A stretch of DNA of 64,000 bases from Escherichia phage naswa: sequence record MN850595.1; one strand, 5' to 3'. Shown here piece after piece: positions 3,969 to 37,119 of the stretch. The translations under genes were made by a program, and so were the position numbers. The notes under the pieces were generated by a model. The model saw only the letters and a program-made list of their open reading frames with translations. It made no database searches and was not told the origin of the DNA. Numbering within the stretch: position 1 is the first letter of the stretch; each line of letters starts with the position of its first letter.

Positions 3969-5338
3969 TGGAAAAAGGGCAGTATGACGTAGGCACAGAT
4001 GCTGCCCTCATTGCAATCATGAGTGGTGAGAATGTCTTCGTTTCAGGACCTGCAGGTTGTGGGAAGACGTATCTCATCAACATGATCCAGTCAATGTATG
4101 GAGACTCTTGCATAACGGTTGCCCCGACAGGGGTAGCCGCTTTAAACGTTAATGGAGCAACAGCACACCGAACATTCGATCTTGCAGCAGGTGTGAGCAT
4201 GGAGTCGGACTGGACCGCAATAAGGGCAAAAACAGCAAAGCCTTTGAAAAGCAAGGCATTTACCATCCTAATTATCGATGAAATCTCTATGATCCGTGCT
4301 GATAAGTTTATAGAGATGGATAGGAAACTCCGCTTCCTTCGAAAAAATGACAAACCTTTCGGAGGCATACAGGTCATATTGTTTGGCGATTTTTACCAGG
4401 CACCTCCTGTTGTCTCTTCTATGGAGAAGGAAGCCTACTTCAACTTCTACCATACGGACCTGTGTTGCTACACCGAATCTTGGAAAGAGCTTGACCTCCA
4501 CAACATAGCCCTAATAGATCAGTTCCGACAGGAGTCTATTCGATTTGCCACAATGCTTAACTGTGTTCGTGAGGGTCGTCGCATAAAAGAGGTTGTAGCA
4601 GAACTTAATGCTCGCTGTTACAAAGGTGGTGTACCAACAGATGCTCTCACAATTTGCGCCACCAACAAACAAGCAGAGGAAGTAAACAGAAGGTTCTATG
4701 ATGCCATCAACGCCCCAGAGAAGGTATACACTGGTGAAATGAAGGGTAAGTTTCCCTCCACCCTGCCAGTTGAGCAGGAGATGAAGTTGAAAATTGGCAT
4801 GAAAGTTATGATAACCGCCAACGATGTTGACCCGACGCACAAAGTACCTTATTATGTTAACGGAACACGTGCCACAATTGTTAAATTTAAGAACAAGGCG
4901 GTGGTGGTAGAGCTTGAAGATGGAACACAGGTTGACATAGAGCAGAGGTTGTGGGAGAATAACGAGTATAAGCCCTCTCAGAGATACAACATTGCAGAAA
5001 GGAAGATGGAGAAGTTTATAGAGAGGGTAGTGATTGGGTCATACAAGCAACTTCCTCTGAAATCTGGGTACGCCGTAACATCTCATAAAAGTCAAGGACT
5101 TACGCTAGATTGTTACAACCTAGACCTTGGAAAGAACGGAGCTTTCTCTCCTGGGATGACGTATGTCGCTTTGAGTAGAGTTAAGACAATACAAGGAATA
5201 AACTTGTTGCGTCCCCTAAGAGAAGTTGACATTATTGTTGACCCGCGAGTAGTAGAGTTTTACAATACAACATTCCCTGACTTAGACAAAATTGTCAGGA
5301 AAGATTTTGAAACCAGAGCAGAAGAGGGGGACGTATGA
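3968..5338 (+). CDS. Dda-like SF1B DNA helicase (RecD/Pif1-like)
   Basis: Walker A VSGPAGCGKT, Walker B IIDEISMI, C-terminal SHKSQGLTLD motif. Confidence 0.75.
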   Translation: MEKGQYDVGTDAALIAIMSGENVFVSGPAGCGKTYLINMIQSMYGDSCITVAPTGVAALNVNGATAHRTFDLAAGVSMESDWTAIRAKTAKPLKSKAFTILIIDEISMIRADKFIEMDRKLRFLRKNDKPFGGIQVILFGDFYQAPPVVSSMEKEAYFNFYHTDLCCYTESWKELDLHNIALIDQFRQESIRFATMLNCVREGRRIKEVVAELNARCYKGGVPTDALTICATNKQAEEVNRRFYDAINAPEKVYTGEMKGKFPSTLPVEQEMKLKIGMKVMITANDVDPTHKVPYYVNGTRATIVKFKNKAVVVELEDGTQVDIEQRLWENNEYKPSQRYNIAERKMEKFIERVVIGSYKQLPLKSGYAVTSHKSQGLTLDCYNLDLGKNGAFSPGMTYVALSRVKTIQGINLLRPLREVDIIVDPRVVEFYNTTFPDLDKIVRKDFETRAEEGDV

Positions 5339-32938: not shown

Positions 32939-33202
32939 ATGAAACGTCTGGATCAGCTTAAATTAGTTCAGTACATGGCCTACAGAATTCTTGAAGTCCA
33001 AAAAGGTAGCAAAAAAGAGGTTTGCGAGAAAGCTTATAAGATCTTTACTCGCAAAAAAGATGACTGGATGCTACGCCAGACCAAAAAATCCGATATCCTG
33101 GGGTACCTGGAAGAAGAGATCCGGCTTGAAGAACAAGAAGAGATCCGCCGCAGTGAGGCAGATTATCAGGCAGCTTGGGAAAACTGGATGAGCAACAAAT
33201 AA
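32939..33202 (+). CDS. Hypothetical protein
   Basis: ATG after AAAGAGGAAAA RBS. Confidence 0.5.
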   Translation: MKRLDQLKLVQYMAYRILEVQKGSKKEVCEKAYKIFTRKKDDWMLRQTKKSDILGYLEEEIRLEEQEEIRRSEADYQAAWENWMSNK

Positions 33203-33268
33203 TACAACAAGTTACGGTCAGGGGGGTAATAAAGCCCCTTGATCACATAAAAATTATGCTATCCCTGG

Positions 33269-33297
33269 TTGACAGGGATCGGCAGTTTTGCTATATT
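33269..33297 (+). promoter_or_regulatory. Sigma70-like promoter (TTGACA-17-TATATT)
   Basis: -35 embedded in inverted repeat ATCCCTG/CAGGGAT. Confidence 0.5.
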
Positions 33298-33346
33298 CTT
33301 TTTTGAAGGGGAGTTGTAAGAAAATTAACTAAGAGGTAAAAACACC

Positions 33347-33766
33347 ATGAACATTAAATCTAATAATCCGGCATATAGCTTTGATAACGCTTTTTGTCAC
33401 GGTCCGGCGGCGAAAGGATTCGAAATCGATGGTAAACTAATTATTGTCAATGTTGACGGGGAAGAGGTTGCAGTATATCCGGTGGCAGACGTTAAAAGCC
33501 GTCTACAATGCCGCATGGATGTTACCGCCTATCAGCTTGATCCGGTCCGCATAGTTGCCCTGGTCCTGGAAGAAGAAATTAAAGCCATGCACCATAGCAA
33601 CAGATTTATTGGTGACGCGCAGGATAATATGAAAGTATGCCGCCATAAAGTTAATGAAGTGCTTAAAGAGTACGGCTATAAAGATCTTATGATCAAACGC
33701 GAGGAAAAATTCCGCTACCGTAACGACCTGGCAAATCGGATTTTTGAAATATACGAATCATTATAA
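33347..33766 (+). CDS. Hypothetical protein
   Basis: 139 aa ORF with AAGAGG RBS; last gene of plus-strand block. Confidence 0.55.
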   Translation: MNIKSNNPAYSFDNAFCHGPAAKGFEIDGKLIIVNVDGEEVAVYPVADVKSRLQCRMDVTAYQLDPVRIVALVLEEEIKAMHHSNRFIGDAQDNMKVCRHKVNEVLKEYGYKDLMIKREEKFRYRNDLANRIFEIYESL

Positions 33767-33783
33767 TTTTTTAACTGAATTAT

Positions 33784-33810
33784 CAAGGGGCTTAGGCCCC
33801 TTTCTTTTTG
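33784..33810 (+). terminator. Rho-independent terminator
   Basis: AAGGGGC-tta-GCCCCTT followed by TCTTTTTG. Confidence 0.6.
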
Positions 33811-34429
33811 TCTGCTCTTCCCCCCCTACCATAAACGGCCCTACCTGGCAAGTGGAATAATTGACGAGCCATCAATCCCACACACTGTACAAATATACAT
33901 GGAAAATAACTATTGCATAATTTTTCATTGTGTGGTAGCAAGGCCATTTTTACCCGTTTTACCTTCCAAAATTGCACGTAATGCCGCTATTGCACAAATT
34001 TTAACCTGATGCACATCTCCAATATCTTGTCAACAACTAAAAATCTTTATAAGTCATGCACTTACATAACCACAAAAGCGTGTTCTACGTGAAAAATCGA
34101 GTATAACTATAGCCGCCAGATCTCAGAATTTACGTACGCTCACCAGTCTATAGCCTGCTAAGTATTTATTCCAACCATAGAATAACGGAATAGTCAATAC
34201 CTGCATAAAATAATTATTCGTGTAAACTGCATAACATAAATCGGCTAGGATGTCAACATTTTTCGTAAACAGCTCGAAATTATAACGGTGAGTTATAATA
34301 AACAGAGAAATCTTTAGTCGTCTAATGTTTACTGTACATTACTATACTGACTGGAATCATTAGATGACTAAGAGAAAGATAAGAAATCATTAACAATGCA
34401 ATTGTTTTATTCGTAACAATAAGGCAACT

Positions 34430-34680
34430 ATGCAAACGAATGGCATGGCGCGACGGAGTCGCGACATAATATAAAAGCAGTAACCATCACCCCCGTGATA
34501 GTTTGTCTGCAAACTATTAATCAGATCATAGTTGCCTTGTATTTAGTTAATCATGACATAACAAGCAGGGCAACTATAGATCTGCTAATAGTTGCCCTGC
34601 TTTTATATTATGTCATGCTAATTATAATCAGTGCGATTATTGTCATGTATAATTATTGTCATGCAAACGAATGGCATGGC
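34430..34680. repeat. 20-bp direct repeat ATGCAAACGAATGGCATGGC (34430-34449 and 34661-34680) flanking a nested ~64-bp palindrome (34553-34616)
   Basis: Exact 20-bp repeat 231 bp apart; ATGACATAA...GCAGGGCAACTAT-10 nt-ATAGTTGCCCTGC...TTATGTCAT; ATTATTGTCATG also repeated. Confidence 0.6.
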
Positions 34681-34692
34681 TGATTATCGGTG

Positions 34693-34788
34693 TGTAAACA
34701 GTCAATCATGTAAATGGTTAGCATGTGAACAATCAGGAATGTAAACAATCCAGTGTGTAAACTAATAGGTGTGTAAAAGTGTCATGTT
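34693..34788. repeat. Six tandem iterons with 16-bp periodicity (core TGTAAAC)
   Basis: TGTAAAC/TGTAAAT/TGTGAAC units starting at 34693, 34709, 34724, 34740, 34756, 34772. Confidence 0.65.
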
Positions 34789-36265
34789 GTGTCAGTTAGG
34801 TCACATTATGTCAGACAAGTTTTTCTCCTCTTTGTCAAGTGCTGCATGAAAAATTTACAAGCTTGTATGGTAGCATTTTTGCGGCCCTGTTTACATTCAG
34901 GAGTGTATGTATAATCCTTGGTGTGTGGGCGTTTAGACGTCTAGACGGTTGGAAGTATGCAGGTCAATATCTAATCTATTGGCTGCTAACTATATCCCAC
35001 ACAAATGATAAGAAATATAATTGTTATATGCGTAAACTGTAACTCATGTTATCAATCCCTGTATGTATCGCCAGTGGTGCGCATAATGGGTATTATGTTA
35101 AATTGCCCGTAATGATAACTATTCTCACAATGATAGGTATTCTCATTCACCCCCACAAGATAGGTTGCAAATGTTGTGCCACTGTGTGAACGGCCTAGCC
35201 TATTAATTTGCCTCACTGCCTTGATATTTGAGAATTGTTATAAGAATGAGAAGTATTCCCATTTCGTCCGCCTGGCAGCACTCCAGTCGCTACCGGCTCC
35301 TGACAGGGCAGCTCTCCTGTAGGTCAGGTCAAAATCGTGGTAGAATTGGGCCTATTCAGATATTTCTGGCTGACTCTTCAGGTCTGTGTGAGAAAAGCCA
35401 ACCTTTCCGGCGGCGGGGAGGGGTCAATTAAAAAATTTACGTGGTGTATGAAGCGCTCTTCAGGTAAGGCAGGTATTATGTGATGAAACCCTCTTCAGGC
35501 AATGATATTTGTGGGTGTGATATTTGCTGGAAAGCCAGATATGACGGGACTCCCGGCGGGGCAGGGGTAGTACAGACAGGGAAAATATGGGGGATGTAGT
35601 TGGGGAAATTGATCAGGCAGGTAGAGTATGGAATATGTTACAAGTATGTTAAATATGGAGGTTGAATATCTGCAGGATTTGTGTGTAAAATCAAAGACTT
35701 AAGTGGTGTTGTGGTATTTTCTATAAATAATTCAAGTTTAATAGGTAATATTTGTCTCTATCCACTTTGTGTGGTAAACAGATTCAGATGAAATTGGTTT
35801 ACAAGTGTATACATAATATACAAATTAAAGATACAAGAAACCCCCCTCCCCCTTCGGCTACCATTCACCTTTTCCTCTGACTGGTACTTAAACACTTATT
35901 CAGACTCTTCAGGTTATCACCCATATATCATATGGCAGTGACTGGTGTCCTCCGGCCCCTCTTTCGTCACCCGTCCGCTTCGCCATGCTAATGCCATAGC
36001 CAATGGTTCGGTTGTTCACCCTGTTCACTCAGGTGTATCTCCATACCCCTTCAAACCGAAGAGAACAGAAAACCCGAATTACTCGGTAAAAGAAAAGAGA
36101 AGAACTTAATTTTATCAGGATAGGCAAGAATGTCAAGGCATGACTGCTCACTAAACAAGCAAACAGTCATGTGTGGTAGGTAAGTGATTGTGGTGGTAGG
36201 AAATTTAGTTGAAAGATGTGTTATAGGTGCGCTTCCAGCACTTTAGCCGGGCAGCTAATTGTGTG

Positions 36266-36481
36266 TCAGTCTAGCGGTTCATCCTCTACTTCACTGAAAT
36301 CAATGTTCATGGTCTCTTCCCAACCATCGATCTCAGCACAAGAGTGGAGTTCTTTAGGGTTTACTCCCAAAGCCTCAGCAACAGAGTCTATATTTAACAC
36401 CTCTGGCAGGTATGATTCATCGAATTCAAGGTAAATCAGGCCACGAGTGTTGTCAGCTCCACCAAATATCTCTATCTTCAT
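36266..36481 (-). CDS. Small acidic protein
   Basis: 71 aa Asp/Glu-rich ORF; last gene of minus-strand block. Confidence 0.45.
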   Translation of the reverse strand: MKIEIFGGADNTRGLIYLEFDESYLPEVLNIDSVAEALGVNPKELHSCAEIDGWEETMNIDFSEVEDEPLD

Positions 36482-36602
36482 AAAATCTCCTCTGGGAATG
36501 AGAGTGTGAACAGGGTTTTATACGTTCCAATGCACAAGAATTATACACGTTTGCCTCTTCAGGCCATGCTTTAGCATGAGGAACCTGTGTGGGCTCGGTG
36601 CT

Positions 36603-36815
36603 TCATAGTCTACCACCTCTGAACTCTTCGTGCTCAGGCATAATAGAGAACCAGATATCTACGATGTCCTCCCACGTCAGGTCATCAGCCTCAGGATCTG
36701 TCTGGGACGAAGATGAAGAGTCCTCAGAATCTAAGTTTCCCTCTTTAACTGGCTCATCCAAGGGACATATGGTCACTCCTTCGGATGTCTCTTCAGATGC
36801 ATGTGTGTTGATCAT
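36603..36815 (-). CDS. Small acidic Ser/Asp/Glu-rich protein
   Basis: 70 aa ORF, ATGA overlap with upstream small ORF. Confidence 0.45.
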   Translation of the reverse strand: MINTHASEETSEGVTICPLDEPVKEGNLDSEDSSSSSQTDPEADDLTWEDIVDIWFSIMPEHEEFRGGRL

Positions 36816-36913
36816 GTTCCACCCGTGAGTATTCCGGCAACAGCCGCTATGGAAGTAATGATCATCAGGATCACCACTAAAACTTCAGACAATGTTCTCA
36901 TTGTGTATTCCAT
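36812..36913 (-). CDS. Small membrane peptide (33 aa), not in ORF track
   Basis: ATG after GGAGAA RBS and CA-rich leader downstream of consensus promoter; hydrophobic LVVILMIITSIAAVAGIL. Confidence 0.4.
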   Translation of the reverse strand: MEYTMRTLSEVLVVILMIITSIAAVAGILTGGT

Positions 36914-36933
36914 ATTCTCCAAACTGTGTGTGG

Positions 36934-36962
36934 ATACTATCACGGGAGCGGTAATGTGTCAA
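36934..36962 (-). promoter_or_regulatory. Sigma70-like promoter on minus strand (TTGACA-17-TAGTAT)
   Basis: Reverse-complement consensus hexamers upstream of small ORF at 36913. Confidence 0.5.
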
Positions 36963-37119
36963 CAGCAACGCCGCGAGGGTTTGGTTAAAATCCGAGCGTA
37001 TGGTGATTTGGGTCAAAACGGACGTGCGTTCTCGCTACGCTCGAAAGAGAGACTTGTTTGTAGAAAGCTCTTAAACGCTCTGTAACGAGATTATCTGTCC
37101 AAGGTATGCAATCGTGCAC

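Follow-up and report, generated by a model that had tools for sequence, protein, structure and literature searches.

What purpose is served by a dense cluster of short repeats and palindromes that lies where two blocks of genes converge in a phage genome? The question arises in Escherichia phage naswa, of which we analysed a stretch of 64,000 nucleotides (sequence record MN850595.1; hereafter the window, numbered from its first letter) that comes from an rV5-like coliphage (Vequintavirus) genome. A preliminary description had singled out positions 34425-34795, within a non-coding gap of about 2.5 kb, as a candidate replication origin or packaging site; we refer to these positions as the flagged interval. 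Comparison with relatives places the flagged interval beside the position equivalent to a mapped genome end, and we modestly favour the view that the cluster is the unique-sequence flank of the genome end, and so belongs to the region in which the concatemer junction is processed, in a phage whose genome carries a short exact direct terminal repeat (DTR).

Phages of the rV5 type belong to the coliphages that are isolated most frequently, and their use in therapy and biocontrol is under consideration, yet accounts of their genome ends disagree: some describe a terminal repeat, others circular permutation or headful packaging. Both the rV5-like non-coding gap (published in 2013) and the terminal repeats (2019, 2020) have been described before, and repeat and hairpin elements flanking a short DTR are of a known type that will not greatly surprise a specialist. 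In the literature that we searched we found no description of the flanking arrays, of the phased GTCA series, of the cut-site palindromes, or of the conserved, cross-genus palindrome reported here.

Results and Discussion

Genome ends mapped in close relatives lie beside the cluster

The position of the end was taken from close relatives with mapped ends, namely Gotham, HdK5, EdH4, ECP2309, bov10K2 and bov25_3. The Gotham record annotates identical repeats at 1-459 and 136567-137025, and in HdK5 the 459-nt prefix exactly equals the suffix; both repeats map to 35272..34814 of the window on the minus strand, at 95.6-97.5% identity. The last base in the records of EdH4 and ECP2309 corresponds to 34814, and the first base in those of bov10K2 and bov25_3 to 35272. 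Read along the minus strand, the virion DNA of these relatives starts at the equivalent of window position 35272 and ends at that of 34814, with the 459-bp repeat at both ends. Terminal repeats of 458/459 bp have been published for HdK5, EdH4 and Gotham (PMC7471380, PMC6563267), and for Gotham the ends are described as fixed and non-permuted (PMC7471380).

Only one copy of the DTR is present in the window, which is therefore a collapsed, junction-like representation, as would be found at a replicated concatemer junction. The flagged interval lies 19-389 nt outside the DTR boundary at 34814 and in the virion corresponds to the unique DNA that follows the left copy of the repeat, so that the genome end falls 19 nt past an interval in which no end had been noted. 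Because the cluster adjoins a physical genome end, a role in packaging or cutting is suggested rather than one as an origin. Of the two functions put forward in the preliminary description, the packaging or terminus part is thus the one that gains, and strongly as regards position, from the ends mapped in relatives (34814 and 35272); the origin part received no specific support.

Both mapped ends sit in sequences with two-fold symmetry, cut as TGTCA/GACA and as GCC/TGGC (Table 1), and both of these palindromes are invariant in 16 of 16 aligned genomes. The arrays abut the TGTCA/GACA end. Moving outward from that end, one meets in order the cut, the GTCA cores, the heptamer array, the second 20-bp repeat, an AT-rich spacer and the palindrome block. 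These landmarks, TGTCA/GACA at one boundary and GCC/TGGC at the other, give a straightforward means of orienting genomes of this kind and of putting back the absent copy of the repeat.

Table 1. Coordinates of the features in the gap and in the DTR (window numbering; a dot marks features without strand)
Feature	Position	Strand	Details
Non-coding gap, ~2.5 kb	33767-36265		between the converging gene blocks
Strong terminator	33785-33802	+	after the last plus-strand gene
20-bp direct repeat, copy 1 (ATGCAAACGAATGGCATGGC)	34430-34449	+	left edge of the palindrome block; invariant in 16 aligned genomes
Large nested palindrome	34463-34614	.	perfect 18-nt outer arms, 34463-80 / 34597-614; 200-351 nt beyond the DTR end
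Terminator-like hairpin, then T-run	34482-34503	-	
Hairpin of ~68 bp, then T-run	34549-34616	+	perfect 15-bp core, 34563-77 / 34588-602; 10-nt loop
AT-rich variable spacer	34617-34660	.	insertions in relatives, some of them a GC-rich hairpin
20-bp direct repeat, copy 2 (ATGCAAACGAATGGCATGGC)	34661-34680	+	TGCAAAC inside, 31 nt from the first heptamer and in phase
Six heptamer units of 15-16 bp, core RYGTRAAYART	34691-34781	+	TGTAAAC-type heptamers
Four (T)GTCA cores	34780-34813	+	starts 34781, 34791, 34800, 34810; spacing 10/9/10, about one helical turn
9-bp palindrome TGTCAGACA	34809-34817	.	cut TGTCA/GACA between 34813 and 34814; invariant in relatives
DTR, 459 bp	34814-35272	-	virion orientation reads 35272 down to 34814; from mapped ends of relatives (PMC7471380, PMC6563267)
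Inverted array unit (TGTAAACAG)	34887-34895	-	inside the DTR; roughly mirrors the array across the cut
Two tandem 18-bp palindromic boxes (reverse strand AATGAGAATAnnTATCATT)	35111-35145	.	inside the DTR; third copy at 35245-35261
7-bp palindrome GCCTGGC	35270-35276	.	cut GCC/TGGC between 35272 and 35273; other mapped end
Unit of ~33 bp (CAGCACTCCAGTCG... / CAGCTCTCCTGTAG...)	35276-35341	+	just outside the other DTR boundary

Searches by blastn with the repeat and with the array segment returned matches in the genus Vequintavirus only. In the databases, most Vequintavirus genomes have been linearised at arbitrary sites and lack the second copy of the repeat. The 'repeat_region' annotated in pangalan, nomo, magaca and Alma was considered as a terminal repeat and rejected, as it covers only the 18-bp tandem repeat at 35111-35145.

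Phased repeats lead up to the cut

The six TGTAAAC-type iterons described earlier, with their 15-16 bp period, were confirmed: the heptamers start at 34693, 34709, 34724, 34740, 34756 and 34772, giving spacings of 16, 15, 16, 16 and 16. In 300 dinucleotide-preserving shuffles of the whole window, scored with one mismatch allowed and a spacing of 15-16, the longest chain had three members and was seen once, compared with the six observed. Within the gap the extended motif reaches about 14 times the density that it has elsewhere in the window (P = 1.3e-4). When 67 units from 11 distinct arrays are compared, the consensus is RYGTRAAYART, and flanking positions by which the units had not been selected are informative (T at +8 in 62 of the 67), whereas four to five spacer positions are near random. 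Informative cores set among near-random spacers therefore argue for selection on the core rather than for recent tandem duplication.

Toward the cut the array is continued to 34813 by the (T)GTCA cores, which had not been noted before; their series ends exactly at the mapped terminus, and it is the sole chain longer than two in the window. Relatives carry 2-12 heptamer units and 3-7 GTCA cores. The preliminary description had made its proposal depend in part on conservation of the iterons in related phages, and this held for the core, for the phasing (15-16 bp and 9-11 bp in the two series) and for the last GTCA unit adjoining the cut, which is invariant, but not for the number of copies. Also kept is the final GTGTCAG/ACAAG. 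Nowhere in the gap is variation greater than in the two segments that immediately flank the DTR (conservation of 0.76-0.85 and 0.68 in an alignment of 16 genomes); on the array side this variability is one of copy number. On the other side, the ~33-bp unit is present once in pangalan, rV5, Murica and slur16 and three times in JeffSchatz (range 1-3), and both flanks of the DTR therefore carry repeats of variable copy number.

Regular repeats with a conserved core and free spacers, beside an AT-rich stretch and strong palindromes, could also be read as a replication origin, in which the heptamers would be iterons, the AT-rich stretch at 34617-34660 the unwinding element and the palindromes an aid to loading, replication from it being late or of the rolling-circle type at the genome end. 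A precedent for such timing is found in ICP1, where marker frequencies reveal a peak of late replication at one end of the genome; the ICP1 DNA polymerase is among the closest homologues of that of rV5. The AT-rich stretch, however, ranks lowest in conservation within the gap and takes up GC-rich insertions in relatives, and a number of iterons that can fall to 2 or rise to 12 sits poorly with an origin. None of the five genes nearest the gap is recognisably initiator-like (they have no Pfam match, and their PHROG families are of unknown function), although an initiator could be encoded elsewhere. The switch in the GC-skew profile of the window coincides with the change in transcription direction, which explains it, in agreement with the rV5 paper, where the skew change at the gap was credited to transcription direction and no origin was defined there (PMC3606486). 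Finally, an origin leaves unexplained why the array runs unbroken into the mapped terminase cut site. On these grounds we consider an origin at this site unlikely.

An invariant palindrome block lies further out

A repeat finder returned the 20-bp direct repeat of the preliminary description at 34430 and 34661 as a perfect pair; we estimate that chance alone would yield about 0.002 pairs of this kind in 64 kb. The nested palindrome, given earlier as ~64 bp, is a hairpin of about 68 bp that extends the inner pair of 15-nt arms; the larger palindrome has outer arms of 18 nt (Table 1). Folding of the block 34417-34620 is exceptionally strong, with z = -9.9 as DNA and z = -9.5 and -9.95 as RNA on the two strands (in each case 0 of 200 shuffles were as good). 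When the gap is aligned across 16 genomes, conservation in the palindrome block (34417-34616) is 97-100% in each 50-nt bin, and about 99-100% for the large nested palindrome, while its neighbours are at 76-95%; variation in the block consists of scattered single substitutions and one 33-nt insertion, found in rV5 only, at the equivalent of 34559. The adjoining spacer is of a different character: at the equivalent of 34620 a GC-rich hairpin insertion of about 30 nt (GAAACACCCGAAGGGGTGACC...) is present in rV5, Murica, AlexBoehm and ev158.

Within the invariant block, GGCAACTAT or GCAAACTAT occurs six times in both orientations (34421, 34499, 34509, 34528, 34569 and 34589), its copies forming the inner palindromes, and the 20-bp direct repeat has a similar half-site (GCAAACGAAT). 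We also considered whether the 20-bp repeats are the target-site duplication of an insertion resembling a miniature inverted-repeat transposable element; this was rejected, since the inverted arms are not terminal (they stand 13 and 46 nt from the repeats) and since 20 bp is very long for a target-site duplication.

The two hairpins at 34563-34602 (plus strand) and 34503-34482 (minus strand) each have a GC-containing stem-loop followed by a T-run, and the block may thus be a two-way terminator or insulator and nothing more, the arrays being minisatellites that arise by slippage, are tolerated near DNA ends and play no part in packaging. The records of Murica and Alma list the plus-strand hairpin (34549-34616) as a terminator, terminators were expected between genes 163 and 164 in the rV5 paper (PMC3606486), and the high variability in array copy number is in keeping with this explanation. 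Yet the last plus-strand gene already has a strong terminator of its own at 33785-33802, and near-invariance over 200 bp exceeds what a terminator needs. The equivalent palindrome of another genus, described below, has no T-run after its outer stem. Slippage likewise does not account for cores that are conserved amid randomised spacers, a pattern that points to selection on the cores, nor for the invariance of the last GTCA unit and of the cut-site palindrome. We therefore regard termination together with neutral slippage as a doubtful account of the whole cluster.

A palindrome stands in the same place in a second genus

Klebsiella phage KPP-1 (Vequintavirinae, Mydovirus) has a 514-bp repeat that was set by coverage and PhageTerm (PMC9862379), and we find this repeat in the convergence gap of KPP-1 itself. 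At the start of the repeat, GGTGCTA/GACGGACAG of KPP-1 aligns with GCTGCCA/GGCGGACG of naswa (the slash marks the boundary), and at its end CTTGACAAGGAGAGAGAATTGTGTT aligns with CTTGACAAAGAGGAGAAAAACTTGTC; among 2000 shuffles, only 4 did as well as the alignment at the end, and 53 as well as that at the start. A palindrome of about 206 nt (z = -10.6) lies 309-514 nt beyond the end of the KPP-1 repeat; its sequence is unrelated to that of the naswa palindrome, and its outer stem is not followed by a T-run. The palindrome architecture is common to the two genera, and the multi-copy array is specific to the genus Vequintavirus. Related large myoviruses have short terminal repeats as well, of 342-514 bp, including BME3 with 342 bp and Jab with 475 bp; BME3 (phi92-like) was not used for boundaries, as its deposited ends contain N's and a duplicated segment.

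A model for processing of the concatemer junction

The reading that we favour, in which the cluster takes part in processing the concatemer junction, can be set out as a series of steps. The phased GTCA cores and the RYGTRAAYART units would be putative binding sites that position terminase, by way of its small subunit or an accessory protein, and terminase so positioned would cut inside the adjoining TGTCA/GACA palindrome. The invariant palindrome block, 200-350 nt further out, may act as a DNA structure, either a snap-back hairpin or a cruciform, which would prime or permit copying of the repeat and so yield a repeat at both ends of each genome that is cut out, as proposed for T7. A second role of the block, compatible with the first, might be to stop the two converging transcription units. 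We infer this assignment of function from the adjacency to the end, the phasing, what is and what is not conserved, and the precedent of T7, and the binding of terminase to the arrays is a prediction from their sequence. For engineering and rebooting, the practical consequence would be that synthetic genomes made without these elements may not package.

A stricter form of the proposal would have the invariant palindrome and the phased arrays make up a dedicated module for duplicating the terminal repeat. In such a module, a nick or cruciform at the palindrome would give a snap-back primer, synthesis through the arrays and the 459-bp repeat would precede the terminase cut at TGTCA/GACA, and the whole might be coupled to a late origin at the genome end. 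We advance this tentatively and think it improbable as it stands; if it is true, the long-debated model in which repeats are regenerated through a hairpin would for the first time gain comparative evidence from outside the T7 group, because KPP-1 has an unrelated and equally strong palindrome in the same position.

A cluster that adjoins a physical end and that is built of dense, region-specific repeats and palindromes might also act in DNA entry or in protection of the end, as a signal for a pause in ejection or as a platform for a protein that guards the incoming end. The model for an ejection pause would be the injection-stop region in the terminal repeat of T5. No result points to two-step DNA entry in rV5-like phages, and no test was aimed at it; we hold a function of this kind to be very improbable.

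Several observations weigh against a role in junction processing. The ends were mapped in relatives, and for the naswa genome they are inferred only. The number of heptamer units varies from 2 to 12 among relatives and is therefore not critical, as would also be expected of a tolerated minisatellite. KPP-1 lacks a multi-copy heptamer array and has a single heptamer-like unit, and the array is therefore not required across the subfamily. The two hairpins of the palindrome block resemble intrinsic terminators. To our knowledge the function of the T7 arrays is unproven, and the analogy with T7 therefore carries resemblance and not mechanism. Lastly, other papers report vequintaviruses as "circular permutated" or "headful (PAC)", which conflicts with fixed repeats of 458/459 bp; differences in library method could explain these conflicting reports.

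Other motifs in and near the DTR

The palindromic boxes of the DTR, AATGAGAATAnnTATCATT / TGATAAnnnTTATCA, are found in or beside the terminal repeats of three lineages that are otherwise unalignable (the window, KPP-1 and BME3). In KPP-1 they lie at 4712-4737, 5242, 5300 and 5444 of the locus compared (L006). With up to three mismatches, the window holds 24 matches to the box where 5.4 are expected, six of them within 34616-35243. The boxes resemble the enterobacterial Fur-box consensus, and they are a candidate site for a conserved protein.

Two further motifs recur on the plus strand of the gap. TGTRTGGTAR is present four times, at 33929, 34864, 35768 and 36170 (spacings of 935, 904 and 402 nt), and once elsewhere in the 64 kb, with 0.4 expected. 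It was considered as a general phage promoter and rejected, since four of the five copies in the window are in the gap and the motif does not recur upstream of genes elsewhere. CTCTTCAGG is present five times in or next to the gap, at 35374, 35456, 35491, 35905 and 36555, a count to be set against 0.5 expected for the entire 64 kb; the KPP-1 repeat also contains a related copy (L006, about 4400).

Farther from the DTR, a block of about 350 nt (35817-36166) is ~100% identical in 16 aligned genomes and 97-100% identical in 118 records. From its minus strand a strong sigma-70-like promoter (36136..36109; TTGACA-16-TAAAAT with TG) reads toward the DTR, and a hairpin with a T-run follows downstream at 36086..36074. 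Rfam gave no match to the block, its folding is unremarkable (z = -1.0), and it was found in this genus only; it may be an unrecognised non-coding RNA or a leader.

The gap and its neighbouring genes

The gap matches 121 phage records at 90-99% identity, all of them rV5-like (Vequintavirus). The earlier statement that this 2.5-kb zone of convergence has no credible open reading frame is borne out: no frame in it exceeds 67 amino acids, and the single frame that spans the flagged interval is disrupted by indels in relatives. Because some of these indels are not multiples of three, the gap contains no conserved reading frame. On the rV5 genome map the stretch is marked by a "non-coding" box (PMC3606486). 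An Rfam scan of 33000-37000 with E up to 1 found no RNA family, and no transfer RNA genes were found in the window.

The terminase genes lie outside the window. BASEL records open at the small-terminase gene or its operon, and in these records the junction is at ~92-95 kb. A flanking 71-amino-acid protein used as an IMG/VR query returned 3 loci only. The database also has 18-19 entries labelled 'Campylobacter phage' (MG0656xx, e.g. MG065659 and MG065653) whose identity to this rV5-like region is 78-96%, and over the gap such entries match as well as the other records; probably the hosts were mislabelled or the samples contaminated.

Comparison with known systems

Iteron-type origins such as lambda ori and plasmid oriV also have regularly spaced direct repeats with a conserved core beside AT-rich DNA. 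The naswa cluster shares with them at least three regular repeats of this kind, and it differs in having no conserved AT-rich unwinding element, no recognisable initiator among the adjacent genes, a copy number that runs from 2 to 12 among relatives, and an array that ends at a terminase cut site.

The lambda cos site (cosN with the R-sites of cosB) and pac sites of the SPP1/P22 type have repeats beside a cleavage site with partial two-fold symmetry. The likeness to naswa lies in the short repeats beside a two-fold-symmetric cut and in the presumed logic, by which a small terminase subunit bound to the repeats would position the nuclease. Unlike the products of cos and pac, which are cohesive or headful-permuted ends, the product here is a direct terminal repeat, and the site is far from the terminase genes, in contrast to the usual location of cos and pac.

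A further resemblance is to T7. In the T7 sequence, about twelve CCTAAAG-type heptamers with a 12-14 bp period directly follow the 160-bp repeat, and a shorter CCTAAAG array precedes the right-hand copy; these are the short-repeat arrays named SRL and SRR. Both phages have a short exact DTR that has to be duplicated in packaging, regular heptamer arrays of less than 20 bp period beside the repeat, and a strong inverted repeat near the junction. Placing naswa with the T7-type DTR phages accords with the presence of the same few-hundred-bp repeat at both virion ends, as seen via close relatives, with the flanking short-repeat arrays, and with an inverted repeat near the junction that is capable of forming a hairpin and has a candidate role. 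There are also differences. Naswa is a 137-kb myovirus and T7 a 40-kb podovirus; the period is 15-16 bp rather than 12-14 bp, the repeat 459 bp rather than 160 bp, and the motif another one than CCTAAAG. In naswa the heptamer array stands on one side of the DTR and the ~33-bp unit on the other, whereas the T7 arrays flank both; naswa has in addition the ~10-bp-phased GTCA series that abuts the cut; and its genes converge on the ends, whereas the leftmost annotated promoters of T7 (phiOL, A1 and A2) lie just inside the left end. In T7 the repeat must be duplicated in packaging, and a hairpin intermediate has been reported (summarised in PMC4281155). The arrays and the palindrome of the rV5-like phages offer a second, evolutionarily distant system in which to address the long-standing T7 question of how a junction with a single repeat is recognised and how that repeat is duplicated.

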